Source: a virus (Duplodnaviria; Caudoviricetes). Taken from it: 64,000 nucleotides of DNA. The translations under genes and the position numbers were made by a program. Shown here in pieces: positions 27,305 to 46,976 of the stretch. The notes below the pieces were generated by a model that searched no databases, was not told the DNA's origin, and worked only from the letters and a program-made list of their open reading frames with translations. The DNA lies in the IMG/VR virus record IMGVR_UViG_3300032227_000318, positions 46,482-110,481 of that record; one strand, written 5' to 3'. Position 1 is the first letter of the stretch. The number at the start of each line of letters is the position of its first letter.

Positions 27305-28030
27305 TTACTCTTCTTTGAGATTGAGTTTGATCTTTGTTTGGTGATCTATTGGACACTTTCGTCCGTCTGGATACACACCTTGAAAGTAATGCTTTTCCCA
27401 TGTCTTATCTATAGGTGTATTTGGATTTTCTAACATGAGTCTATCAAAATCACCTCTACTCTTTGACCACTGCTCATAGTTCTTGGCCTCTTCTTCATGC
27501 AACTCTAGAGGTCTAACGATAGAACGAAACTCTTCAGTATACTTTCTTTCCATTGGATAGAAAAACAAGAATGGTTCAAAAGGTTCAAATACAATCTCTC
27601 TGTCTGGCTCAGTCATTATCCAGTTCATAGTGAATGTAGCTGGATTCCAATCAGTCTCAACAATACCTGTTAGTGGTGCAATGCCTCTCTTCGGATTGTT
27701 TGGTGTTCCTGATACATACAGATTTACATTTTCTGGTGTACGAACAATAAAATCAGGATGAAAAGTAACTACACCACCGCCAAAGTGTGAGACACATATT
27801 CTATCACCGCCTTCGATAGTAATATCATCAACGTGGTTGCCGCCATTCCAATTTATCTTAATGCGCTGAGAAGTCGATACTTCAAAACCATTTAGATTTG
27901 CGATTGTAAGAGGAAGACAACGGTACGCATATTTGTCTTGACTATTTTCCATCCATTCACGTTCACGAACACCCTTTCGGACATGAATAGTGCTTTGCCG
28001 ATGTATACGATATAGAATAATATCTTTCAT
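27305..28030 (-). CDS. DUF6065-like protein
   Basis: AYRCLPLTIAN, GIVETDW...FTMNW, HQTK. Confidence 0.65.
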   Translation of the reverse strand: MKDIILYRIHRQSTIHVRKGVREREWMENSQDKYAYRCLPLTIANLNGFEVSTSQRIKINWNGGNHVDDITIEGGDRICVSHFGGGVVTFHPDFIVRTPENVNLYVSGTPNNPKRGIAPLTGIVETDWNPATFTMNWIMTEPDREIVFEPFEPFLFFYPMERKYTEEFRSIVRPLELHEEEAKNYEQWSKSRGDFDRLMLENPNTPIDKTWEKHYFQGVYPDGRKCPIDHQTKIKLNLKEE

Positions 28031-28051
28031 AATATAACCTTTCAAATCAAA

Positions 28052-28495
28052 TTATGACTTCTTCCCCATAGAGGCCTTGATCATCCAGTTCAGCTTTGAA
28101 TGCGCTGTGATACGGTCTTGAAGGAAATTAGACAGTGCATAGACCTTTTGTTCTTCGGCCATCTCATAGGTCTCAACAACCACGTTCATTAAATTCTCAT
28201 TGCAAGTAAATAGGTTACTCAACATGAAAGCTGCGGTTGGAATCTTTTCGTCTTCAGATATGATTGATAGCTCCTTCATACGTGTTAACGTCTGAGGCGC
28301 AAAAGCATCCAACTGACGGATATGTTCCGCTAGTGGATCTACTGCTCCCTGATAGTCTTCATAGATAGTGGCAAAGAATTCATGGAGCTGAGGAAAATCA
28401 GAACCAATAACGTTCCAGTGGTATGCTTGTGCTTTTAGTCCTGCTGCAAAGGTTGATGCTAAAACAACCTTCAACTTTTCTACTAGTTCTTCCAT
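28052..28495 (-). CDS. dps: Dps-like ferritin
   Basis: HWNVIGSDFPQLHEFF...D.LAEHIR...WM. Confidence 0.9.
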   Translation of the reverse strand: MEELVEKLKVVLASTFAAGLKAQAYHWNVIGSDFPQLHEFFATIYEDYQGAVDPLAEHIRQLDAFAPQTLTRMKELSIISEDEKIPTAAFMLSNLFTCNENLMNVVVETYEMAEEQKVYALSNFLQDRITAHSKLNWMIKASMGKKS

Positions 28496-28526
28496 TATAT
28501 TCTCCTAATATACATCTTTATATTAA

Positions 28527-28618
28527 TGGCGGAAGGTAAGGGATTTGAACCCTTGGTACCTCTTGCGAAGTACGACGGTTTAGCAAACCGCTGCTTTCGA
28601 CCGCTCAGCCAACCTTCC
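28527..28618 (-). tRNA. tRNA-Ser(GCT)
   Basis: Cloverleaf, long variable arm, encoded CCA. Confidence 0.9.
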
Positions 28619-28619
28619 T

Positions 28620-29069
28620 TTATTCTGTAATCTCTATGTATGTATTATACTTGCCATACTCATTTACGATGTGATACAACCAACGTGCATTCTGAGGGCT
28701 AAGACGAACACAACCGTGTGATGCAGGCCGACCAAGCTTCTTTACTTCTGTTGTTGCGTGAATTGCATAACCGCCGTGAAAGAAGATAGAGTGCGGCATC
28801 GGTGCATTGTCATACTTAGATGAATAGTGCATCTTCTTTACAAGATATGGTTGATACACACCAATCGGTGTACGATATCCCTTGCGTCCAGTAGAAACAT
28901 CCCACTCATAATAATCTGTAGGAGTCTCTACATACATTTTCTGGTCGGACTTATCAACGCGAATGATCACTTCATGCTCACCAAGAGGTTCAACGCCAGC
29001 TTTAACACCTGTAGCCAGCATAAAGATTGCCGCGGCCATCACAGCCAACATAACAAAAAACTTAGTCAT
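28620..29069 (-). CDS. L,D-transpeptidase (YkuD family) with signal peptide
   Basis: VSTG, AIHAT...ASHGCVRL. Confidence 0.9.
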   Translation of the reverse strand: MTKFFVMLAVMAAAIFMLATGVKAGVEPLGEHEVIIRVDKSDQKMYVETPTDYYEWDVSTGRKGYRTPIGVYQPYLVKKMHYSSKYDNAPMPHSIFFHGGYAIHATTEVKKLGRPASHGCVRLSPQNARWLYHIVNEYGKYNTYIEITE

Positions 29070-29567
29070 TTATTCTACCTTCGTTTGCGGTAAATGTTGA
29101 ATAGCGTCTTTGTAACGGTCAGCACAGTAAGATGCTGCCCACGCATTTGGCTTCACTAGCGGCACAATGTTACACATACCACGAATGTAGCCAACAGCTT
29201 CATTTATAACACAGCTTGAACCATGCTTCATGTCTGGATTAATGTCAAGATGGATTTCAGTTTCACGATCTTCTAGAACGTCATAAAGATCCATGTATAG
29301 TTGAGCCGTCTTCATCACTTCATTCATCAGACGCATACGAGGCTTATCTTTCTGCTGATCATAGTCACGTTCACGGACAATGCCACCAAATACCTTACAA
29401 CCGTTCTTGCCGTTCTTATGAACAACGACAACGTTGATGTAGTCGGCATGCCAAACACCATCAATCTGAAAACGTTCAGAGTCGCCACCTAGATATATCT
29501 TTGTTTCGGGAGTTTGTTCTTGAATGAACGCACGAACTTCGTCCAGGTTCATGTTCTTTCTGATCAT
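29070..29567 (-). CDS. RNase H-like YkuK/DUF458 protein
   Basis: YLGGDS, EIHLDIN, AASYCAD. Confidence 0.75.
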   Translation of the reverse strand: MIRKNMNLDEVRAFIQEQTPETKIYLGGDSERFQIDGVWHADYINVVVVHKNGKNGCKVFGGIVRERDYDQQKDKPRMRLMNEVMKTAQLYMDLYDVLEDRETEIHLDINPDMKHGSSCVINEAVGYIRGMCNIVPLVKPNAWAASYCADRYKDAIQHLPQTKVE

Positions 29568-29578
29568 TGTTAAGTTCC

Positions 29579-29962
29579 TTAAAAGACCTTCTTTGCTATC
29601 GATGAATAACTTTTTGGATGAACTCCATCAGCACTAGCGAACGAAGATAAGTATACAACACCATCGCCATGTTGTCTAGCGATATTTAGAGCAATCTTTC
29701 TTGCTTTTGCGTTGTTATTGGAAAGAATCCAAATAACTTTACCAGATATTTTGTTTCTGAGGATATTAAGGTATTTGGAAAAATCTGCATTACCATCATT
29801 TGATCCGAGAGATATGACAGTAGTTTTTGAGGAAGGAATATATTTGTAAGAAACTACAAAGTTTTTGCTGTTTATGCCGACCTTTGCTATAGTCTTACAC
29901 TGCGGAGTAACAGAACCAACGCCAACAGCAATACTGTCGCCCAATATTAAACAATCAATCAT
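29579..29962 (-). CDS. SGNH/GDSL hydrolase
   Basis: GDSIA, LGSND, DGVHP. Confidence 0.8.
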   Translation of the reverse strand: MIDCLILGDSIAVGVGSVTPQCKTIAKVGINSKNFVVSYKYIPSSKTTVISLGSNDGNADFSKYLNILRNKISGKVIWILSNNNAKARKIALNIARQHGDGVVYLSSFASADGVHPKSYSSIAKKVF

Positions 29963-29978
29963 TGTTAAGTTCCTATAA

Positions 29979-30052
29979 TGGTGCCTCTATCCAGAATCGA
30001 ACTGGAGCCAATCCCCTACCAAAGGATTGTTCTACCACTATACTATAGAGGC
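29979..30052 (-). tRNA. tRNA-Thr(GGT)
   Basis: Cloverleaf with CCA. Confidence 0.9.
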
Positions 30053-30058
30053 AGTGAT

Positions 30059-30135
30059 TGGTGCGCCTGGAGAGACTCGAACTCCCAACATCCGGTTTCT
30101 AAGACCGGCGCCTCTACCAATTGGACTACAAGCGC
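30059..30135 (-). tRNA. tRNA-Leu(TAG), short variable loop
   Basis: Cloverleaf with CCA, 77 nt. Confidence 0.85.
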
Positions 30136-30140
30136 GTTAA

Positions 30141-30216
30141 TGGTGCGAGATGAGAGGGTCGAACTCCCGACATCCTGCGTGTAAAACAGGCGCTACTACC
30201 ACTGAGCTAATCTCGC
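30141..30216 (-). tRNA. tRNA-Val(TAC)
   Basis: Cloverleaf with CCA. Confidence 0.9.
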
Positions 30217-30223
30217 GTTAATT

Positions 30224-30297
30224 TGGAGCGGGTAGCGGGAATCGAACCCGCGCACTCTCCTTGGCAAGGAGAAAGGCTACCATTACATCATACCAGC
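30224..30297 (-). tRNA. tRNA-Gly(GCC)
   Basis: Cloverleaf with CCA; one acceptor mismatch. Confidence 0.85.
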
Positions 30298-30315
30298 TTA
30301 CTCTATATTTATAAT

Positions 30316-30391
30316 TGGTGCGTCATGGTAGAATCGAACTACCTTTTCCGGCTTATGAGACCAGCGGGATGTCCATCACCCCCCAAGACGC
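30316..30391 (-). tRNA. tRNA-Met/Ile2(CAT)
   Basis: Cloverleaf with CCA. Confidence 0.8.
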
Positions 30392-30515
30392 ATTTACTTA
30401 TGATTCTTGCCAAACCAAGATATTTCTTTTATTCTTGGTCCCATTGCTATCGCAGAAGCAAGACATGCTTTATATATGGCGTCATATAGTTCTTTGCTCA
30501 TGTTTATTTCCTAAA

Positions 30516-30593
30516 TGGTGCAAGGTCTTGGAATCGAACCAAGTTCTTCCGCTCTTCAGGCGGACGCTGAATTACCAAACTAGCTCACCTTGC
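30516..30593 (-). tRNA. tRNA-Phe(GAA)
   Basis: Cloverleaf with CCA; 5' end overlaps the upstream endonuclease ORF. Confidence 0.9.
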
Positions 30594-31207
30594 ATTATTC
30601 TATTATACTCGTTTTTCTCAATAATTACAATCTTTTTTTCTGGGTGCTGTTTCAGAACTGCTTCCATCTTTCTCTTATCATCGCCCCACCAGTAACCTTT
30701 TATCTCAAGGAATATATCTTGATCTATCAATTGTAGATCAGGCGTGTACGATTTTTTCTTGCCGTCCAATTCATATTCCCAAACATCTCTATGAACAGCA
30801 GGTTTATACCAATCAATTCCTAACTCATCAAGTTTCTTGGCTATGTTTAGTTCCCAAGTGCCTTGTAGTTTCTGTCCTTTATATTCAAACCATTTACATT
30901 TACCGCCACGATTCTTTACACTCTGTTCAACAGACAATCTTTTACGAGCTTCTTCCCCCATTCTTGTCGGAACAAATGAACCATTAGCTATCTTAGCCTG
31001 TATTGTCTGGCTGTTTTTCTCAGCAGTTCTTCGTATTTCTTCAGAAGTTTCTTTAGTCAGCCCTTTTCTGTGGCTAGGACGACCTTTAGATTTGCTTCCT
31101 GTTTTTTGTCCGTGAGCAACGCCGTCTTTTGAATGCGATCTCCAAACATGAGCAACCTTAGCTTTATCGCTCTTTAGTTCTTTGTTACATATTGGGCAAT
31201 AGATCAT
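30572..31207 (-). CDS. Putative homing endonuclease (C2H2 finger plus PD-(D/E)xK domain)
   Basis: CPIC...H...H; YTPD...FLEIKGY. Confidence 0.75.
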   Translation of the reverse strand: MIYCPICNKELKSDKAKVAHVWRSHSKDGVAHGQKTGSKSKGRPSHRKGLTKETSEEIRRTAEKNSQTIQAKIANGSFVPTRMGEEARKRLSVEQSVKNRGGKCKWFEYKGQKLQGTWELNIAKKLDELGIDWYKPAVHRDVWEYELDGKKKSYTPDLQLIDQDIFLEIKGYWWGDDKRKMEAVLKQHPEKKIVIIEKNEYNRIMQGELVW

Positions 31208-31234
31208 AGTTCCTCCTATGATCTATTTATATAA

Positions 31235-31269
31235 CAGGCGTATGTACGCACCAGCTATACCAAGGCAGC
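31235..31269 (-). pseudogene. Truncated tRNA 5' half (Phe-like), ends at G34
   Basis: gctgcct-tg-gtat-agctggtgc-gtac-a-tacgc-ctg, then late promoter. Confidence 0.7.
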
Positions 31270-31275
31270 AGTTAT

Positions 31276-31422
31276 TCAATCACGAAGCAACTGAGGAGCT
31301 GATTCCGTCAAGTTCTTCTTTTCGTATTCTGCAAGTTTAATAGAGTATTGTTCGTTTGTCAACCCATGCCAACCGATACACTTACCAGTCGGACTTCTTC
31401 CACAACCACAATCTTTAGACAT
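31276..31422 (-). CDS. 48-aa CDGSH-like Fe-S/zinc protein
   Basis: CGCGRSPTGKCIGWH; GAGG SD (manual translation). Confidence 0.55.
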   Translation of the reverse strand: MSKDCGCGRSPTGKCIGWHGLTNEQYSIKLAEYEKKNLTESAPQLLRD

Positions 31423-31442
31423 TTATAACCTCATTCGTTAAA

Positions 31443-31530
31443 TGGCGGAAGGTGTAGGATTCGAACCCACGGAACCTTTCGGTTCTTCGCATTTCAAGTG
31501 CGATGCAATAGACCACTCTACCAACCTTCC
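31443..31530 (-). tRNA. tRNA-Ser(TGA)
   Basis: Cloverleaf, variable arm, CCA. Confidence 0.9.
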
Positions 31531-31695
31531 AATTTCGATGCGATTTCTTAAAGTGGTTACGCCCTCCACTATTGTGATAAACGAGAGTTTCCAGTCAAGT
31601 ACAGTCCACTCACAAACCTCTAGCTGCGGGATGACGGAACGCAGTACTTGCCGCCATGATGTATATATTACACTAAATCCCGCATATTGTCAAGT

Positions 31696-32055
31696 CTACC
31701 TTTTCTTCTTCCCTAAGATTTCAACCTTGACTGTGCAAATTCCACCGCAACCAATCTTTCTAGCTGCTGCTCTTGATAGGTCTAAATGTCTGCCTCTAAT
31801 GAATGGGCCCCTATCATTTATTACTACTATTACTGATCTTCCTTTGTGTGTAACCCTAAGTCTTGTGCCAAAGGGTAGTGTCTTATGTGCTGCTGTTAAA
31901 GCATTTGGATTGAATCTTTGCCCGCTTGCAGTGATTTTATTTCTACTACATTCACCAGGCTTAGCGCAATCGTACCATGATGCTTTCATAGTAGACGCAT
32001 AACTGGGCGCTGCAATTAAAAATAATGCAGCTAAGGTTGTTACTAATAGTTTCAT
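31696..32055 (-). CDS. rlpA: RlpA-like DPBB lytic transglycosylase
   Basis: ASWY, TASG, TAAHKTLPFGT, INDRGPF, DLS. Confidence 0.9.
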   Translation of the reverse strand: MKLLVTTLAALFLIAAPSYASTMKASWYDCAKPGECSRNKITASGQRFNPNALTAAHKTLPFGTRLRVTHKGRSVIVVINDRGPFIRGRHLDLSRAAARKIGCGGICTVKVEILGKKKR

Positions 32056-32071
32056 TATAGTTTTCCTTTAG

Positions 32072-32165
32072 TGGAGCATCTGACAGGATTCGAACCTGCA
32101 TCGGATATTTCTATCCACGTCCAGTTACCTTACTCTCCGTTCGTAGCGGAGGGGGCTACAGATGC
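32072..32165 (-). tRNA. Atypical tRNA-Arg(ACG)-like RNA: no canonical D arm, very long variable region
   Basis: 7-bp acceptor, CTCCG-ctACGaa-CGGAG, canonical T arm, CCA. Confidence 0.7.
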
Positions 32166-32171
32166 ATAGTT

Positions 32172-32246
32172 TGGAGGGGCTAACCAGATTTGAACTGATA
32201 CCTCAAGGATTTGCAATCCCGTGCATTACCGTTTTGCTATAGCCCC
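32172..32246 (-). tRNA. tRNA-Cys(GCA)
   Basis: Cloverleaf, U73, CCA. Confidence 0.9.
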
Positions 32247-32250
32247 GTAT

Positions 32251-32324
32251 TGGCTGCTCATCATGGATTCGAACCACAATACCCTGAGTCAGAGTCAGGA
32301 GTCCTACCGTTAGACGAATGAGCA
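32251..32324 (-). tRNA. tRNA-Gln(CTG)
   Basis: Cloverleaf with CCA. Confidence 0.9.
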
Positions 32325-32329
32325 ACAAA

Positions 32330-32403
32330 TGGTACTGCCTAGTGGAATCGAACCACCGTATTGCGTTCCACAGACGCACGTTCTACCATTGAACTAAGAC
32401 AGC
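32330..32403 (-). tRNA. tRNA-His(GTG), no G-1, U72/A73
   Basis: Cloverleaf with CCA. Confidence 0.9.
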
Positions 32404-32408
32404 ATGAT

Positions 32409-32485
32409 TGGTTGCGGGTGTGAGTGCTGCCCTCACTATCTCCGGCTTATGAGACCGGCGGCTTATCTACCTTGCCCTACCCACT
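32409..32485 (-). tRNA. tRNA-fMet-like (CAT), degenerate T loop
   Basis: A1xA72 mismatch, CAT anticodon, T loop GGCAGCA. Confidence 0.65.
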
Positions 32486-32528
32486 TTATTTCTTATAGAT
32501 TCTGAAATCTTTTTCTTTGTTAATGAAT

Positions 32529-32603
32529 TGGTAGAGCATACGGGAGTCGAACCCGTCTCTCATCCTTGAAAGGGATGTGACCTAACCGATAGTCGAATGC
32601 TCC
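32529..32603 (-). tRNA. tRNA-Glu(TTC)
   Basis: Cloverleaf with CCA. Confidence 0.9.
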
Positions 32604-32604
32604 A

Positions 32605-32679
32605 TGGAGAACCCTCTGGGATTCGAACCCAGGACAGACGGATTAAAAGCCCGCTACTCTACCACTGAGTTAAGGGTTC
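32605..32679 (-). tRNA. tRNA-Lys(TTT)
   Basis: Cloverleaf with CCA. Confidence 0.9.
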
Positions 32680-32684
32680 ATTGT

Positions 32685-32758
32685 TGGCTGGGAGACTAGG
32701 ATTCGAACCTAGATAGCAGGAATCAAAATCCTGCGTCCTACCTTTAGACGATCTCCCA
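32685..32758 (-). tRNA. tRNA-Gln(TTG)
   Basis: Cloverleaf with CCA. Confidence 0.9.
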
Positions 32759-32764
32759 ATGAAA

Positions 32765-32838
32765 TGGTAGTTCCTACTGGTTTCGATCCAGTGATGCGCG
32801 GTTATCGGCCGCGAGTTTTACCATTAAACTAAGGAACC
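32765..32838 (-). tRNA. tRNA-Ile(GAT)
   Basis: Cloverleaf with CCA; C33 and ATCGAAA T loop; overlaps the end of the HNH ORF. Confidence 0.85.
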
Positions 32839-33318
32839 ATATTTCTTTTTTCTATCTCTGCCTCGCCATGTGGTAGTTTGACTGTGGCAGTTTGGACAAA
32901 GACATTCTAAATTTTCTCTATTGTTATTAGTTCTAATGCCGTCTTTGTGTTCAAGTTCAAGTGTTAATGGCTGATCTAACCATCGGTCATTACCACATCT
33001 ATTACACTTGAAATTCTGTTCTTCTAAGACTTTTAGACGAATGGCCGCTCTGCTTTTGAAATCCGTGGTATCTCTATTCTTTCTTAGAATAGCATAATGC
33101 TCACTGAAAGCTACATTCGGCCCTATTTTCACACCTTTGTTCCAAGCAGTTCTCTCGCCTGTCTTAAAGGCGTGATTAGGATCAAAGTCAATACCCCTAA
33201 TCTTTTTCTTTATAGGTCCGATACAAGCATCCACATGTCTATCAAAGTTATTTACGGTGATGTTTCTATCACATTTATCACAGTGTTTAGTTGGCTTTTT
33301 ACTCATAGTTGTCTCCAT
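32824..33318 (-). CDS. HNH homing endonuclease
   Basis: CNRCG...LELEHKDG...NN..NL..LCPNCHSQT. Confidence 0.9.
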   Translation of the reverse strand: METTMSKKPTKHCDKCDRNITVNNFDRHVDACIGPIKKKIRGIDFDPNHAFKTGERTAWNKGVKIGPNVAFSEHYAILRKNRDTTDFKSRAAIRLKVLEEQNFKCNRCGNDRWLDQPLTLELEHKDGIRTNNNRENLECLCPNCHSQTTTWRGRDRKKKYGSLV

Positions 33319-33339
33319 AGTAGCACATCTATTTAGTAA

Positions 33340-33371
33340 AAGCGCCTACTCTACCATTGAGCTACAAGCCA
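33340..33371 (-). pseudogene. Truncated tRNA 5' half (Ile-like), ends in the anticodon loop
   Basis: tggcttg-ta-gctc-aatggta-gagt-a-ggcgc-tt, then TACTAAATA. Confidence 0.7.
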
Positions 33372-33497
33372 ATATATTCCGTACACCTTGCAGGTTTAGC
33401 CCTTTCGCGAACTGAGTCAGCAATCCTGCATTCGTAAGCTTTCCCTCATGTTGGGCTTACTAGGTCTCCCCTGTCTTATCTAGAAAGACGGGTAATT

Positions 33498-33583
33498 TGG
33501 TGGGTGAGAAAGGATTCGAACCTTCTAAGTCATAGACAACGGATTTACAGTCCGCCACAACACGCCGTCGTTGCCGCTCACCC
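33498..33583 (-). tRNA. tRNA-Tyr(GTA)
   Basis: Cloverleaf, variable arm, CCA. Confidence 0.9.
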
Positions 33584-33592
33584 GAACAAGTA

Positions 33593-33769
33593 TTATTCTT
33601 TTTCTGGCCACTGAACTATTAAGTTTGGGTCAGTAACCTTTACATCATTAATACGAATGCCACCCTGTTCAATCAATCGTCTAGCTGCACTCTTGCTTTT
33701 TGCAAATCCAGCAGCAATAACTATGTCGACTAACGAAACAGTTCTTGGTACAGTTATTTCAGGTAACAT
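33593..33769 (-). CDS. 58-aa stand-alone S4 RNA-binding domain resembling the TyrRS C-terminal domain
   Basis: LVDIVIAAGFAKSKSAARRLIEQGGIRINDVKVTD; AGGAG SD (manual translation). Confidence 0.8.
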   Translation of the reverse strand: MLPEITVPRTVSLVDIVIAAGFAKSKSAARRLIEQGGIRINDVKVTDPNLIVQWPEKE

Positions 33770-33860
33770 TGTATTCTCCTAAAAAGCGCCAACCTCACAG
33801 TTATTCGGCTGGCTGTTTGACATTCATGACGCGCATCACTGCTACGTAGTCAGATCAAAT

Positions 33861-33943
33861 TGGTGCCAAGGGAGGGAATCGAACCCCCGATGTTTGTATG
33901 CCTCCTTACAAGAGAGGTGCTGTCGCCGCTGAGCCACCTTGGC
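33861..33943 (-). tRNA. tRNA-Thr(TGT) with ~12-nt variable region
   Basis: Cloverleaf with CCA; G1 is the last base of the HNH stop codon. Confidence 0.8.
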
Positions 33944-34359
33944 TAATAACTTTTACCTTCAGCATATCGCTGTCTTCTATAGTGTCTGCCATTACCTTTA
34001 TTTGCGCCTTTGTAAGTTGGCGTTTGTGAATGGCAGTTTGGACAAATCAAACATAGATTTTCTATGTTGTTATTCTCACTGTTGCCGTCTTTATGTTCTA
34101 AATCAAATACGATTGATTTATTGTTCCATTCAGTTATACCACAAGTATAGCATTTGTTGCCGTATGTGTCAATGATATATTTTTTTATCTGTCTTTTACC
34201 AGGAACAACACCCTCTTCAAGCCAATTTTTTATCTTGTCTTTACGAGTATATTCATGTTGACACTTTTGTGAACAATATTTACCAGTAGATGAATATACA
34301 TTTCTTACTGTGTGTTCTTTATTACAATTTTGACAGACTATGATTCCTGATTTACCCAT
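33943..34359 (-). CDS. HNH homing endonuclease
   Basis: CQNC..YCSQKC; CYTCG...LEHKDGN..NN..NLCLICPNCHSQT. Confidence 0.9.
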   Translation of the reverse strand: MGKSGIIVCQNCNKEHTVRNVYSSTGKYCSQKCQHEYTRKDKIKNWLEEGVVPGKRQIKKYIIDTYGNKCYTCGITEWNNKSIVFDLEHKDGNSENNNIENLCLICPNCHSQTPTYKGANKGNGRHYRRQRYAEGKSY

Positions 34360-34419
34360 GTTATACCTCTATGTTTTGGTATAACTATTTATAATACACA
34401 AATGTTCTACCATTTGGAT

Positions 34420-34494
34420 TGGTGGAGGATAACGGAATCGAACCGTTTTCTCTGCCGTGCAAAGGCAGCGTTTCCCCAATAGCACTGATCCCCC
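34420..34494 (-). tRNA. tRNA-Ala(TGC)
   Basis: G3:U70 pair, CCA. Confidence 0.9.
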
Positions 34495-34568
34495 GTTATT
34501 TACATGCACAAATCTTCATAAAGGACAGTATGTTTCCTGTGTGTGGCAAGATCACCATCACGATCATC

Positions 34569-34597
34569 ATTGTACCACAGCGTGGTAAAAAAGTCAA
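34569..34597 (-). promoter_or_regulatory. Internal sigma70 promoter TTGACT-N17-TACAAT
   Basis: Near-consensus hexamers and spacing. Confidence 0.6.
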
Positions 34598-34630
34598 CTA
34601 TAATATCAAACATTCTATTTCCTTTTGTAT

Positions 34631-34704
34631 TGGCACCAGTGCAAGGATTCGAACCCTGACAAGCAGTTTTGGAGGCTGCCGTGCTACCGTTACACTACAC
34701 TGAT
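34631..34704 (-). tRNA. tRNA-Trp(CCA)
   Basis: Cloverleaf with CCA. Confidence 0.9.
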
Positions 34705-34710
34705 ATGAAT

Positions 34711-34787
34711 TGGTCGGAGTGGTAGGATTCGAACCCACGACCCTTCGCTCCCAAAGCGAATGCTCTACCAGACTGAGCCACACTCCG
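34711..34787 (-). tRNA. tRNA-Pro(TGG)
   Basis: Cloverleaf with CCA. Confidence 0.9.
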
Positions 34788-34793
34788 TTATAC

Positions 34794-34867
34794 TGGCGAC
34801 CTATGCGAGACTCAAACTCGCTACACCTCTTAGACAGAGAGGTGTGATATCCATTCACTAATAGGCC
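34794..34867 (-). tRNA. tRNA-Asp(GTC)
   Basis: Cloverleaf, G73, CCA. Confidence 0.85.
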
Positions 34868-34873
34868 TTGAAT

Positions 34874-34948
34874 TGGAGAACCAGGTGAGAATTGAACTCA
34901 CGACACGCGGGTTAAGAGGTCGCTACTCTACCACTGAGTTACTGGTCC
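34874..34948 (-). tRNA. tRNA-Lys(CTT)
   Basis: Cloverleaf with CCA; weak anticodon stem. Confidence 0.8.
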
Positions 34949-34954
34949 TTGAAT

Positions 34955-35030
34955 TGGCTGGATAGCTTGGATTCGAACCAAGGACATCCTCGTTAACAGC
35001 GAGGCGCTCTACCGCTGGAGCTACTATCCA
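34955..35030 (-). tRNA. tRNA-Asn(GTT)
   Basis: Cloverleaf with CCA. Confidence 0.9.
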
Positions 35031-35032
35031 AT

Positions 35033-35174
35033 ATTCTACTTTCGTCAGTAGTCACATCATCATATGAGATTCGAACTCATGCCTGCGCCGCTTCTGCGGC
35101 ACCGTGCTTCCCCTACACCAATGAATGACTTGTCGCGGTGGCCACCTGCTAGTGACTACTGACGAAAGTAGAAT
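35033..35174 (-). ncRNA. Structured RNA: perfect 23-bp stem enclosing an anticodon-less tRNA-like domain
   Basis: Inverted repeat 35033-35055/35152-35174; D-like arm, tetraloop arm and TTCGAAT T arm inside. Confidence 0.7.
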
Positions 35175-35320
35175 GTGAGGCTGTGCTGAGTCACAGACAC
35201 TCACTGGATATTTCGCTACTCAGTGCGCCTTTGAGAAGAGCAAAGGTACTCATAGGAACTTAACAATGTCAATCAGCGACCGCGTCTATCTTGCCCGCGC
35301 GGCTGGGAAACTCTCTCTTA

Positions 35321-35403
35321 CATACTGGATATAGTGTCTCAAGGTGCTGGTTTCAAGTCTTTTCTTATTCTTTTTTCGTATATCTGCTATGCACTAGACA
35401 CAA
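35321..35403 (-). promoter_or_regulatory. Promoter TTGAAA-N16-CTATAT feeding the downstream tRNA array
   Basis: Same element as at 5252, 5651 and 38489. Confidence 0.65.
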
Positions 35404-35407
35404 CCCT

Positions 35408-35446
35408 GAAAATGAAAGAACCCCGAAACTTTCGCTCCGGGGTTCT
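35408..35446 (-). terminator. Intrinsic terminator (attenuator)
   Basis: AGAACCCCGGAGC-GAAA-GUUUCGGGGUUCU followed by UUCAUUUU. Confidence 0.85.
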
Positions 35447-35469
35447 AAGAAACTAAGTCTATCTAAGAC

Positions 35470-35550
35470 TTAATACATAGAACCCCCTACACCTGCCCAT
35501 GATGGCTGGCGTGTCTCTTGATTAATCGTGAAGGGGCAATAACGTTTCAT
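35470..35550 (-). CDS. 26-aa leader peptide MKRYCPFTINQETRQPSWAGVGGSMY
   Basis: Manual translation; 22 consecutive non-repeating codons; 3' end complementary to the terminator 5' arm. Confidence 0.7.
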   Translation of the reverse strand: MKRYCPFTINQETRQPSWAGVGGSMY

Positions 35551-35574
35551 TTCCGTCTTTCTTAAACTGTACTC

Positions 35575-35615
35575 TATTTAGTATACATCCTAGCAGGATT
35601 TTATTAGGTTGTCAA
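35575..35615 (-). promoter_or_regulatory. Tandem sigma70 (TTGACA-N17-TAGGAT) and late (TACTAAATA) promoters for the leader
   Basis: Consensus matches immediately upstream of the leader ORF. Confidence 0.65.
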
Positions 35616-35624
35616 CTTTTTTTT

Positions 35625-35701
35625 TGGTGCGAAAGGTGGGACTTGAACCCACAGAACTCGGTTTTTGAGACCGATACGTATACCTATTCCGTCACTCTCG
35701 C
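35625..35701 (-). tRNA. tRNA-Leu(CAA), short variable loop
   Basis: Cloverleaf with CCA, 77 nt. Confidence 0.85.
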
Positions 35702-35705
35702 TTAT

Positions 35706-35797
35706 TGGTCGGCGTGCTTGGATTCGAACCAAGTCAAGAACACTCATCTAGTGCTAAAGGGATTATAAGGCCCTCCCGTGTACCAACACCCACGCCG
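35706..35797 (-). tRNA. tRNA-Ile(TAT) with long variable arm and minimal D arm
   Basis: 7-bp acceptor, ctTATaa loop, variable arm, T arm, CCA. Confidence 0.75.
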
Positions 35798-35801
35798 TTA
35801 T

Positions 35802-36251
35802 TTACATTACAGAAAAGAATCCAAGTGTGGCATCATTATATTTCTTGTCTCTTTTTCTATCCCAACCACGCTTTGCTCTTTCACTTCTGTCTTGTGATGT
35901 AAGTTTTGCTGCTGACGCTTTACCACCAATTGAGCCAAACTTATCTTTCACTTTATCATAACCTTTTCTGGCATTCTCTTTGGTAAAGCCACCAATGCCA
36001 CCTTTTCTCATATTATATGTCTTATTAGTGTTAAAGTCAACAGTTAGTTCGGCTTCTAGCTTGTATGCTTCATCTTTCGATTCAGTGATGAATAAGACTT
36101 CTTTTTTGAAGTTGTCTTTTCCATATTTTCTTAATGCTTCTTCAATAGCACGACCTGAACCAAAATATACATCACTTGGATTGTTTGTTTTATGAACACC
36201 AATATAGTGTTTATTGTTGATTAGATTTATTGTTTTATATACAGTATACAT
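35802..36251 (-). CDS. GIY-YIG (Seg-like) homing endonuclease
   Basis: VYKTIN...HYIGVH...YFGSG...YN...GG.GG. Confidence 0.85.
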   Translation of the reverse strand: MYTVYKTINLINNKHYIGVHKTNNPSDVYFGSGRAIEEALRKYGKDNFKKEVLFITESKDEAYKLEAELTVDFNTNKTYNMRKGGIGGFTKENARKGYDKVKDKFGSIGGKASAAKLTSQDRSERAKRGWDRKRDKKYNDATLGFFSVM

Positions 36252-36286
36252 CCATTATCTCCTCAGTGGATGTATTTATAGTAAAA

Positions 36287-36362
36287 TGGTGCGACCACCA
36301 GGACTCGAACCCGGAACCAGACAGGTATGAACTGTCAGCTCTAACCGTTGAGCTATAGTCGC
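36287..36362 (-). tRNA. tRNA-Met/Ile2(CAT)
   Basis: Cloverleaf with CCA. Confidence 0.85.
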
Positions 36363-36366
36363 TTAT

Positions 36367-36453
36367 TGGTGCGGGCGGTGGGACTCGAACCCACAACGTT
36401 TCTATTGTAGCAAATTTTAAGTCTGCCGCGGCTCACCATTACGCCACGCCCGC
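36367..36453 (-). tRNA. tRNA-Leu(TAA)
   Basis: Cloverleaf, variable arm, CCA. Confidence 0.9.
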
Positions 36454-36461
36454 TTTATTGT

Positions 36462-36728
36462 TTAGTCCTTCATTGCGCCGGACATGAAGCCCTTGCGAGG
36501 ATCACCCCACTCAGTCTCAGCACGAACACGAACATATCGCGCGCGAGTGTCGGCCGTATTAGGATTAGGCACAGTGACCCACGGGTTCTTACCCTTCAAC
36601 CAGGCTTTCTGCAAGAGTGTCCACTTATCAATAGCGGAACGTTCACGCTTGATAGCCTTTGACAGGCTGCGATTTGCTTCACGCTCACCCTTAGAGGTGT
36701 AAGCAGACTTAGACTTCGGTGCAGACAT
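36462..36728 (-). CDS. Hypothetical basic protein
   Basis: YTSKGER...AWLKGKNPWVTVPNPN; GGAG SD. Confidence 0.6.
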   Translation of the reverse strand: MSAPKSKSAYTSKGEREANRSLSKAIKRERSAIDKWTLLQKAWLKGKNPWVTVPNPNTADTRARYVRVRAETEWGDPRKGFMSGAMKD

Positions 36729-36752
36729 TCACTTTCTCCATTATACTATAAT

Positions 36753-36828
36753 TGGCGACCCCTGCACGACTCGAACGTGCGACACCCTGTTTAGAAGACA
36801 GGTACTCTATCCACTGAGCTAAGGGGCC
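36753..36828 (-). tRNA. tRNA-Arg(TCT)
   Basis: Cloverleaf, A20, CCA. Confidence 0.9.
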
Positions 36829-36840
36829 ATTGAAACTTAT

Positions 36841-37026
36841 TTATGCTACTTCGTAGGCAAATCCCTTGACATAGCAACCATCTAGAAACCGATGGCCAGT
36901 CTTATGGGCATCATCACTATCTACGAAGAACTGTTCCCAGATACAATCATCATTCTCAAAACAGTATAGCATGAATCCTACACGGTTGTCAAGAATATAA
37001 AAATCTACATCATAAGACCTAACCAT
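36841..37026 (-). CDS. Hypothetical protein
   Basis: Translationally coupled ORF. Confidence 0.5.
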   Translation of the reverse strand: MVRSYDVDFYILDNRVGFMLYCFENDDCIWEQFFVDSDDAHKTGHRFLDGCYVKGFAYEVA

Positions 37027-37289
37027 TATGCGACCTCACGAAGCTTAATGCCAGTGATTCGTTCATCCGCAATGAGAGAAACGGGATACTGAGGATTACC
37101 TGTGTGCAAACGAAAAGTACCAACGGGATCATGTCGCTCACTTGCTACTACCTTTCCAGATTTGATAGACACATTATTCATCACACCATACTTATAATGT
37201 GTGCGAACATGGATCATATCGCCAACTTTGATTTTCCACTTAGTCTTGATCATCTTGTATATCTTACTTGGTATTGATCGCCTTGTCAA
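37026..37289 (-). CDS. Hypothetical protein
   Basis: ORF in operon. Confidence 0.45.
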   Translation of the reverse strand: MTRRSIPSKIYKMIKTKWKIKVGDMIHVRTHYKYGVMNNVSIKSGKVVASERHDPVGTFRLHTGNPQYPVSLIADERITGIKLREVA

Positions 37290-37794
37290 GCTTGAAAAGC
37301 TTACCGTTCATGTACATCTTACCATTCTTGAACTTGATCTTTTCTGACTGGAGCATCACCTGATAGAACAGGTAGAGCGAACGGTCACGACCATAAGCCT
37401 CAATTTCCCAAGGCCAGTTGAAGTAGTCTTCCATAGAGTTAGTCAGTTTGAAAGTCTTACCCTGCCACTTTGCAGTGATCAACTCATTAGACAACTCACC
37501 CCTTGCGTACTGCTTCACATGCACCATTTCATGCGCGAGGCACTGGAGCATTTTGTACCGCTGCATTCCAGGTCTGATACCAATCTCAAAGGACTTAGGG
37601 CGCCGTTCAGAATCGACAGGGTAACAGCCACCCTCATTGCGCCCCTGATCCTCAAGCCGAATTTCAATATCAAGCTTTTCTGTAAGTCTGGTGCCCATGA
37701 TATAGTGGGCAAAGAAAGCAGCAGCGAACTTGAGTTCAGCCTTGCACATAGCCTTGGTTCTGCCGACGATATTAATATCCATTGAGTTCACCAT
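37264..37794 (-). CDS. HExxH zinc metallopeptidase-like protein
   Basis: LAHEMVHVKQY...PWEIEAY. Confidence 0.8.
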   Translation of the reverse strand: MVNSMDINIVGRTKAMCKAELKFAAAFFAHYIMGTRLTEKLDIEIRLEDQGRNEGGCYPVDSERRPKSFEIGIRPGMQRYKMLQCLAHEMVHVKQYARGELSNELITAKWQGKTFKLTNSMEDYFNWPWEIEAYGRDRSLYLFYQVMLQSEKIKFKNGKMYMNGKLFKLDKAINTK

Positions 37795-46235: not shown

Positions 46236-46976
46236 TCAATCCCATAAGTTCTGATAGTATTTACCGAAAAGAATAAATCCGTTCTGCTTGCGCTTGTGAT
46301 AAGCATTAAACTTTTCTTTGTTGAACTTACCACGTTCACGCTCACGCTTTTCGGACCAATATGATTCTTCTTTTTCAATCACATTGCCATCATCTTTCAA
46401 AACGCTGTATTTTCTAGGTTCAATAACTTCATCAGGAGCATAAGGATCATAGAAGCTCTTAACACATCCATCATCATCATCAAGTTTCTGTTCAAAGCTC
46501 CAAATCATCTGGTCAATAACCCAAAGCCACTGAGATTGAAACTTTTCATTCACTGCTTCAAGTTCTTCTTCAGTGGCATTCAGAGTTTTGTCGTAATGGC
46601 CGTGATCAAAAACTACACTCTCTCTTTCAGAGAAACGAAGATGTTCGGGCAAGTCTTCTTTGTCTACAAAGGGGCTGCCGTGCTTGGCATCTCTAAGCTG
46701 CTTCAACATAGGGAGAGTGATATATGCCAGCGTGTGATCCATTGACCAAGTGTCATAGCTGTCAATACGAACATTGATCTTACGCTTTCGCTTACTGATA
46801 AGCTTGTTGACTGTTACATCTAAAACAGTTTGACACCAGCTTTCAAGTTTTTCAAGAAGCTTCTCAAAACGAGTGGTGCTTTCTTCCCAATCATATCCGT
46901 ACTTCTTGTTCATATACTTGTAATGAAAATCAGCAACGTAACGATTGCCTACATGTGGTCCGATATCTACTTTCAC
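46236..46976 (-). CDS. Conserved phage hypothetical protein
   Basis: DTWSMDHTLA...LFGKYYQNLWD. Confidence 0.7.
   Translation of the reverse strand: MKVDIGPHVGNRYVADFHYKYMNKKYGYDWEESTTRFEKLLEKLESWCQTVLDVTVNKLISKRKRKINVRIDSYDTWSMDHTLAYITLPMLKQLRDAKHGSPFVDKEDLPEHLRFSERESVVFDHGHYDKTLNATEEELEAVNEKFQSQWLWVIDQMIWSFEQKLDDDDGCVKSFYDPYAPDEVIEPRKYSVLKDDGNVIEKEESYWSEKRERERGKFNKEKFNAYHKRKQNGFILFGKYYQNLWD

Follow-up and report, generated by a model that had tools for sequence, protein, structure and literature searches.

A probable homing endonuclease cassette in the anticodon loop of a phage tRNA-Phe gene, with a complete replacement tRNA-Phe fused to the nuclease gene

A stretch of 64,000 nucleotides (nt) from a T4-like phage (Duplodnaviria; Caudoviricetes; positions 46,482 to 110,481 of IMG/VR record IMGVR_UViG_3300032227_000318), hereafter the window, contains an endonuclease gene which lies behind the 5' half of a broken tRNA-Phe gene and which runs into a second, complete tRNA-Phe gene. 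We compared this cassette with related contigs and loci, which are given as L-numbers, and with the described systems which it most resembles. All coordinates are those of the window, and all parts of the cassette are on the minus strand. The T4-like character of the phage is seen in a gp43-type polymerase which is ~50% identical to those of cyanomyophages and in UvsX-like and DnaB-like genes.

The closest concept is that of the elements called mORFs in fungal mitochondria (Allomyces atp6; Glomus atp6, atp9, cox2 and nad3), where an intron-free endonuclease open reading frame (ORF) lies inside a conserved gene, a foreign copy restores the displaced part and the native part persists, unexpressed, as a remnant which matches close relatives (PMC3630166). 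These elements lie in protein-coding genes, encode LAGLIDADG or GIY-YIG enzymes and replace the 3' end of the gene, leaving a 3' remnant (PMC3630166). Our cassette also has a remnant which matches close relatives. Unlike the mORFs it is found in a phage and in an RNA gene, encodes a PD-(D/E)xK enzyme, supplies a whole tRNA and leaves a 5' half upstream as its remnant; it works like the mORF family and is not a member of it.

Among phage systems the cassette resembles SegB of T4 and T6, a free-standing endonuclease whose gene lies in a T4-like tRNA array under a late promoter and a hairpin over the ribosome-binding site (RBS), and which cleaves inside tRNA genes and, as it spreads, co-converts the neighbouring tRNA genes, a process termed “intronless homing” (PMC2988022; PMC13096335). 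SegB itself is a GIY-YIG enzyme which is encoded between intact tRNA genes, prefers the T-loop-like motif RAWTSGAAC and has no isotype preference (PMC2988022; PMC13096335). The “genes in pieces” of Aeromonas phage Aeh1 are also similar, as an intron-free HNH gene, mobE, interrupts a ribonucleotide reductase gene in a T4-like phage and is regulated by a hairpin; in Aeh1 both pieces are functional and assemble as protein (PMC2988022), whereas in our cassette one of the pieces no longer functions and an entire new gene has been supplied. The cassette further differs from SegB in that its nuclease is T7-endonuclease-I-like and is tied to tRNA-Phe only, and in that the gene is embedded in an interrupted tRNA gene and overlaps with an entire substitute tRNA.

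Group I introns sit in the anticodon loops of bacterial tRNA genes, and I-Ssp6803I is the homing enzyme of one such intron in a tRNA-fMet gene. These introns share with the cassette the position of a mobile element in the anticodon loop and provide a precedent for a homing enzyme with a PD-(D/E)xK fold; the cassette, unlike them, has no ribozyme and no 3' exon, and rescue occurs by duplication and not by splicing. A literature search which returned associations of homing endonuclease genes with tRNA genes, as well as the mORF hybrids, contained no phage endonuclease which splits a tRNA gene and brings a replacement, most subscription journals lying beyond its coverage. The phage tRNA version is well supported by the comparative evidence below.

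The cassette consists of the following parts:
31235..31269, minus strand: orphan 5' half of the resident tRNA-Phe(GAA) gene (GCTGCCTTGGTATAGCTGGTGCGTACATACGCCTG), 35 nt, from position 1 to G34.
31224..31231, minus strand: TATAAATA, a T4-type late-promoter motif (from reading of the sequence) at the left end of the inserted cassette.
31198..31227, minus strand: RNA hairpin of 12 base pairs (bp), which sequesters a GGAGG Shine-Dalgarno sequence (31216..31212) in its loop and the ATG start codon in its 3' arm.
30572..31207, minus strand: nuclease ORF of 211 amino acids (aa), with the C-terminus MQGELVW followed by TAA.
Within 30572..31207, minus strand: N-terminal C2H2-like zinc finger, helical linker and C-terminal T7-endonuclease-I-like PD-(D/E)xK domain, as predicted by profiles and a structural model.
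30516..30593, minus strand: complete tRNA-Phe(GAA) (ARAGORN; Rfam tRNA, 35.5 bits).
30572..30593, minus strand: dual-coding overlap of 22 nt, in which the (M)QGELVW-stop codons are also tRNA positions 1-22.

The orphan half contains the acceptor 5' strand, the D arm and the 5' strand of the anticodon stem, and then C32-U33-G34. Directly 3' of it stands TTATATAAATAG, in the control region. The break point is ambiguous by one base (U33/G34 or G34/A35), and the end of the half differs by clade, being CTG in the window's clade and CT/T-AGG-TATAAATA in others (slashes mark the break), which places the break at 33/34 or 34/35. Behind the half, (T)ATAAATA is kept at the equivalent spot in ~25 distinct loci. 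The RBS hairpin has an energy of -15.6 kcal/mol (z = -4.7), and its counterparts in L026, L028, L029 and L033 are maintained via G-U changes. Because the 5' arm of the hairpin overlaps the 3' end of the TATAAATA promoter, late transcripts should be without this arm. A late promoter combined with an RBS-sequestering hairpin whose 5' arm is missing from late transcripts is the control described for I-TevI, I-TevII, I-TevIII, segB and Aeh1 mobE (PMC2988022).

At the other end of the cassette, the third base of the Met codon serves as G1 of the carried tRNA, whose D-loop contains the TAA stop. The acceptor strands of this tRNA pair perfectly with one another (GCAAGGT with ACCTTGC), and it is the sole tRNA-Phe called by ARAGORN in the 110-kb record. 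The GCTGCCT acceptor strand of the half would require an AGGCAGC partner, and neither the window nor the 110-kb record as a whole contains a matching 3' half of the AGGCAGC type.

We found the first 20 nt of the half in 24 IMG/VR contigs, each with an uninterrupted tRNA-Phe(GAA) gene. These intact alleles continue as ...CGCCTG/AAGAGCGTGGGG...AGGCAGCACCA, and across positions 1-35 the half is identical to them at 35/35 in 14 contigs and at 34/35 or less in 10 more, which is not a chance match; several of the contigs also have the tail of a 48-aa ORF upstream (see below). When the window was compared by blastn with L002, L008-10 and L018, the flanks were 85-91% identical, with the homology stopping exactly at 31235 and restarting at the tRNA-Met at 30392-4, such that ~840 nt in the window stand in place of ~43 nt in the nuclease-free relatives.

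A second event was found in L026 and L048, where a cassette which is 92% (nt) and 94% (aa) identical to that of the window lies behind a different half (GCAACCTTGGTGAAGC...CGCCTG). The resident allele of L048 (GCAACCT...) is intact in L150 and L151, with an identical 40-nt stretch upstream and an identical downstream flank. L048, which has the nuclease, and L150, which does not, are 95-99% identical over ~9 kb (L048 6962-7770 corresponding to L150 8829-9637, and L048 8440-9048 to L150 9628-10236), and the difference between them is a 679-nt insert after G34, bounded by a 10-nt repeat, plus the conversion of the tRNA 3' half to its end. The nucleases of the window and L026 are 94% identical while their halves match at only 26/35 positions. 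Near-identical cassettes are thus found at one position in two different resident alleles, and the event therefore happened at least twice. Both events left the recipient's half unchanged (35/35), which suggests that the break lay at the junction or very close to it.

The 3' half of the tRNA was replaced in both the window and L048. The L029 tract stops short, within the T arm: the 3' acceptor strand pairs at 6/7 positions with its own orphan half and at 3/7 with the 5' strand of the cassette. ARAGORN called no tRNA at the end of the L029 cassette, and a scan for an intact resident allele of the L029 type matched only L029's own contig, the L029 case being one of acceptor-pairing arithmetic. 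Close relatives are therefore polymorphic for presence and absence of the cassette at one precise site (the window vs L002, L008-10 and L018; L048 vs L150), and flanking markers are co-converted with variable tract ends (the window, L048 and, in part, L029). A tandem duplication of tRNA-Phe with later insertion into one copy was considered and rejected, as the empty sites have a single tRNA-Phe and both flanks are identical. When viral contigs were scanned for the junction pattern CTGTTATATAAATAGAT, most matches were late promoters of no relation to the cassette, and the two relevant ones, L048 and L063, were already known.

The original prediction, made from the letters of the window, had described the half, the sequence behind it, the hairpin, the ORF and the different tRNA-Phe which the ORF overlaps, and its description was correct to the base. 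It had read these parts as a mobile endonuclease cassette which interrupts a resident tRNA-Phe gene at the anticodon loop and comes with a complete foreign tRNA-Phe, and had proposed a search for an uninterrupted tRNA-Phe in relatives; the comparative evidence bears this out, as 24 related viral contigs have such a gene and two independent pairs of empty and filled sites were found.

We give a probability of roughly 80% to the reading that this is a free-standing homing endonuclease cassette specialised on the tRNA-Phe genes of T4-like phages. The mobile unit probably extends from TTATATAAATAG to the carried tRNA's 3' end and comprises the late promoter, the RBS hairpin, the nuclease gene and the whole tRNA-Phe. 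Comparison of the empty and filled sites places this unit in the anticodon loop of the resident tRNA-Phe (33/34 or 34/35), with the resident 5' half retained and the resident 3' half overwritten up to the tRNA's 3' terminus.

The nuclease matched Pfam PF05367 (Phage_endo_I) over residues 119-204 with 31.9 bits against a gathering cut-off of 29.1, PHROGs phrog_945 “endonuclease” at 1e-15 and, by phmmer, the structures of T7 endonuclease I (PDB 1m0d and 2pfj) at 4e-7; no GIY-YIG match was found in Pfam or PHROGs. Its residues E119, D157, E168 and K170 correspond to E20, D55, E65 and K67 of the T7 enzyme and are invariant in 15 homologues at 28-94% identity. The active site expected of a homing endonuclease is thus intact and conserved and, with all four T7-endonuclease-I catalytic residues invariant, the nuclease is probably active. 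An AlphaFold2 model (pLDDT 84) contains a zinc-finger-like unit at the N-terminus, helices and the nuclease domain. The top Foldseek matches of this model were T7 endonuclease I and the catalytic domain of I-Bth0305I, with weak E-values; as nothing was matched at E ≤ 0.001, the fold assignment rests on sequence. The monomer model has a high root-mean-square deviation to 2pfj, as expected of a domain-swapped dimer.

T7 endonuclease I shares with our nuclease a homologous catalytic domain and the four active-site residues. With its 149 aa it has no zinc finger and acts as a junction resolvase selective for structure; our nuclease, unlike it, has ~115 extra N-terminal residues (zinc finger and helices), has no T7 C-terminal tail and shows the genetic behaviour of a site-specific mobile gene. 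I-Bth0305I is a homing endonuclease of the EDxHD family from a recA intron of a Bacillus phage. It resembles our nuclease as a phage homing enzyme with a restriction-endonuclease-like core and was the second-best fold match (PDB 3r3p; probability 1.00, TM 0.55 on the target); it differs in being intron-encoded, and the Foldseek E-value was only 0.014 at an identity of ~19%.

Since the best sequence and fold matches are to the Holliday-junction resolvase of T7, and tRNA arrays are prone to recombination, the gene might instead encode a housekeeping junction-resolving or repair nuclease of the T7 endonuclease I type, which rides along as recombination shuffles the tRNA arrays and did not itself make the break. 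We consider this improbable in view of the patchy presence of the gene among close relatives, its strict link to a single isotype with the break always in the same loop, and the extra zinc-finger and helical region, which is predicted to bind DNA. The late promoter and RBS hairpin are like those of T4 homing endonucleases, remnants of the gene show that the nuclease is dispensable, and an unrelated HNH gene leaves an equal scar on a tRNA-Ile gene; all three also speak against a housekeeping role.

Viral and metagenome scans for the nuclease returned 101 loci, representing 76 distinct ORFs with the window included. A tRNA-Phe(GAA) is linked to most of these: 50 of the 76 end in or abut one, and 5 more have a tRNA-Phe just upstream. 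The exact 22-nt overlap together with the GELVW C-terminus was found in 31 of the 76. When the regions upstream of the ORFs were searched with a tRNA-Phe hidden Markov model, the matches covered only model positions 1-9 to 29-36 (G34 being position 35), in at least 19 distinct loci. The ~22 distinct halves differ from one another, are without exception broken in the anticodon loop and in every case have (T)ATAAATA behind them. U8 is found in all ~22 of them and the G8 type in 0. The family accounts for >100 protein clusters, none of which has a functional name (“hypothetical”), and the precomputed Pfam family of most homologues is likewise PF05367. Among cultured phages, blastn and tblastn returned only tRNA-level matches and homologues at ≤ 36% aa identity, and no named phage with the cassette. 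A 29% homologue which is annotated as “endonuclease I” is present in the tRNA region of Escherichia phage vB_Eco_F25 (L154; Tequatrovirus, OP870144.1 69682-70341), roughly at the position of T4 segB, and similar genes are found in Acinetobacter T4-like phages.

The cassette-type tRNA was found in 54 viral contigs. In 26 of these the nuclease is absent, with many of the tRNAs directly behind another tRNA, and 27 were scored as nuclease-bearing. The latter include L175, L176 and L190, in which only the last 30-50 nt of the nuclease gene (…GTTGAAAAAGAACAATACGAAAAG…) remain before a cassette-type tRNA-Phe and are fused behind another tRNA, and L206, which has an 81-aa nuclease remnant. L171 was scored as nuclease-free and retains out-of-frame nuclease-like 3' sequence. 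Full genes, remnants of 34-81 aa and clean nuclease-free cassette-type tRNAs appear to form a series of gain, decay and loss.

The layout is common to homologues down to ~40% identity and some of the halves are truncated (L027, L103, L108 and L035), both of which would be expected if a single ancient insertion had been inherited vertically, with the half a decaying pseudogene, the nuclease immobile and the layout due to common descent. We think this very unlikely. Near-isogenic pairs of filled and empty sites, such as L048 vs L150, already contradict it, the halves match local resident alleles at 35/35 and do not co-vary with the nuclease (as in the window and L026), and the catalytic residues are invariant.

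The carried tRNA was examined in a set of 29 cassette tRNAs, with 20 base pairs and 500 shuffles. Of the cells in this alignment, 99.5% were paired, and compensatory double changes were seen in 15 of the 20 pairs, a value reached by 0 of the 500 shuffles; the carried tRNA is therefore under selection as a tRNA. It has a GAA anticodon, A73, an encoded CCA and a maintained cloverleaf, as expected of a functional tRNA-Phe. The D arm and position 8 are not canonical: G8 is invariant in 29/29, and the D stem has 3 bp with a loop of 13-15 nt. Positions 5-23, in the overlap, are nearly invariant, including G8 in place of the near-universal U8. In a tRNA of the window type U8 would create a TAG, and a sister clade with a 10-nt overlap stops at exactly U8-A9-G10.

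This systematically unusual and nearly clade-wide invariant D arm (G8 and long loop), together with the strict isotype link, could suggest that the nuclease acts also or instead on RNA, cleaving the anticodon loop of the tRNA-Phe of the host or of a rival, with the G8 tRNA as a resistant substitute in a toxin/immunity pair. There is little to recommend this, as the scar is in DNA and could not be created by cleavage of RNA, fold and catalytic residues alike mark an enzyme which acts on DNA, and resident and carried tRNAs do not differ in the anticodon loop. A degenerate group I intron or a split or permuted tRNA, with the half joined as RNA to a distant 3' half, was rejected as scarcely credible, the original prediction having also argued against an intron: bacterial tRNA genes classically have their group I introns at 34/35, and one of these houses I-Ssp6803I, but no intron family was matched in Rfam at E ≤ 1 in 28000-37500, the 110-kb record (~33% of the genome lies outside it) has no 3' half, and the ORF leads directly into a tRNA which is complementary to itself and whose acceptor is unable to pair with the half.

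A homing cassette of the kind we favour would work as follows. The nuclease would be expressed from late transcripts alone, towards the end of a mixed infection, and, in a co-infecting phage whose tRNA-Phe gene is nuclease-free, would cut this gene in or close to its anticodon loop, at a site which we infer from the junction alone. The left end of the recipient (...CGCCTG-3') would then anneal to the orphan half of the donor, at its short identical end, and prime copying through the nuclease gene and the tRNA, and the right end would be captured in the 3' half of the tRNA or in the T-loop, with co-conversion of the 3' half. The orphan half would in this way serve as a portable left homology arm in tRNA arrays of scrambled gene order, and the carried tRNA would maintain the phage's supply of tRNA-Phe without any intron. 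The nuclease gene would later decay and be lost while the carried tRNA allele stays.

Several points weigh against this reading. The position of the cut is taken from the junction, and in T4 free-standing endonucleases frequently cleave hundreds of bp away from the gene which encodes them (PMC2988022). The target and the cassette tRNA of the L048/L150 pair have the same 25-nt anticodon-arm core around the putative cut, so that self-immunity must either depend on the D or T arm being recognised or be absent; the lack of G8-type sequences among the ~22 halves is consistent with immunity of the carried allele. The left arm, with ~35 nt at ~74% identity, is short for recombinase-driven invasion, and priming by microhomology may be involved. 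With G8 for the near-universal U8, the full function of the carried tRNA is not guaranteed. The relatives are all metagenomic contigs, and cultured phages have no close homologue, the best being at 36% aa identity. The overlap had also been proposed to lock nuclease and tRNA together, an idea which is weakened because about half of the cassette-type tRNAs (26 of the 54 contigs) have no nuclease. A further suggestion, that the swap of anticodon-arm sequences matters for escape from anticodon nucleases, found no support: the swap leaves the anticodon loop unchanged, and the anticodon stem differs at 3 positions in the window and at none in the L048/L150 pair.

The tRNA array of the window contains a further cassette of the same design:
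32765-33372, minus strand: tRNA-Ile half, HNH ORF (33318..32824) and a different complete tRNA-Ile(GAT).

The half here is GGCTTGTAGCTCAATGGTAGAGTAGGCGCTT (GGCTTGTAGC...GGCGCTT), followed by TTACTAAATAG, the HNH ORF and a tRNA-Ile(GAT) which the ORF overlaps by 15 nt. The intact tRNA-Ile allele (…CTT/GATAGGCG…) is present in L002 with an identical 30-nt flank, and also in L156-158, L160 and L023, which places the break after U33; L159 and L160 form a second pair of filled and empty tRNA-Ile sites. The layout is equal to that of the tRNA-Phe cassette with an unrelated nuclease, and we take it to be a case of convergence.

Two other nuclease genes are found in the same array. One is an HNH ORF (34359..33943, minus strand; region 33943-34419) which ends on the first base of tRNA-Thr(TGT) and is preceded by TATAAATA and by a hairpin of 8 bp (GTTATACC/GGTATAAC) which covers the RBS; the ORF is separated from tRNA-Ala by 60 nt with a D-arm-like AAATGGTAGAAC, which could be a decayed tRNA fragment. 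The other is a GIY-YIG ORF (36251..35802, minus strand; region 35802-36286) between tRNA-Met and tRNA-Ile(TAT), which has TATAAATA and a CATCCA/TGGATG hairpin around the RBS. As it has no tRNA half, it is an ordinary seg-like intergenic insertion.

Three small ORFs were also noted near the tRNA-Phe cassette. A 48-aa Cys-rich ORF (MSKDCGCGRSPTGKC...; 31276-31422, minus strand) ends 6 nt ahead of the orphan half and matched no family; its tail is also conserved immediately before the intact tRNA-Phe in L005, L007-10, L017-19 and L023. Between the cassette tRNA-Phe and tRNA-Met there is a 35-aa ORF (30394-30501, minus strand), again with no family match, which is missing from the nuclease-free relatives and from other cassette carriers. 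Within the tRNA array, between tRNA-Ser and tRNA-Cys, lies a 119-aa ORF (31696-32055, minus strand) which looks secreted and has a DPBB domain (RlpA-like lytic transglycosylase).

We would suggest, tentatively and with rather less than even confidence, that there is a general class of self-rescuing tRNA-gene drive cassettes which has been invented repeatedly by unrelated nucleases (T7-endonuclease-I-like, HNH and others). In such a class the orphan half would be a left homology arm and possibly also an operator by the late promoter, the tRNA with G8 and a long D-loop would be immune to the nuclease, its determinant being co-encoded with the C-terminus of the nuclease, and sweeps of tRNA alleles would shape the tRNA repertoires of phages.

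Homing endonucleases are thought to persist in conserved genes by means of self-splicing introns or inteins, or to lie between genes. The cassette would represent a third route for phages, which is to sit inside an RNA gene and to compensate for the damage with a complete substitute. It defines a large unnamed family of isotype-specific nucleases, whose natural scars and empty sites predict the target of the nuclease. It also provides a rare case in which 22 nt are shared by the C-terminus of a protein and the 5' end of a tRNA, with U8 sacrificed. Finally, the cassette may offer a mechanism for the horizontal replacement of phage tRNA alleles, which is relevant because phage tRNAs are now regarded as counter-defence genes (PMC13096335).

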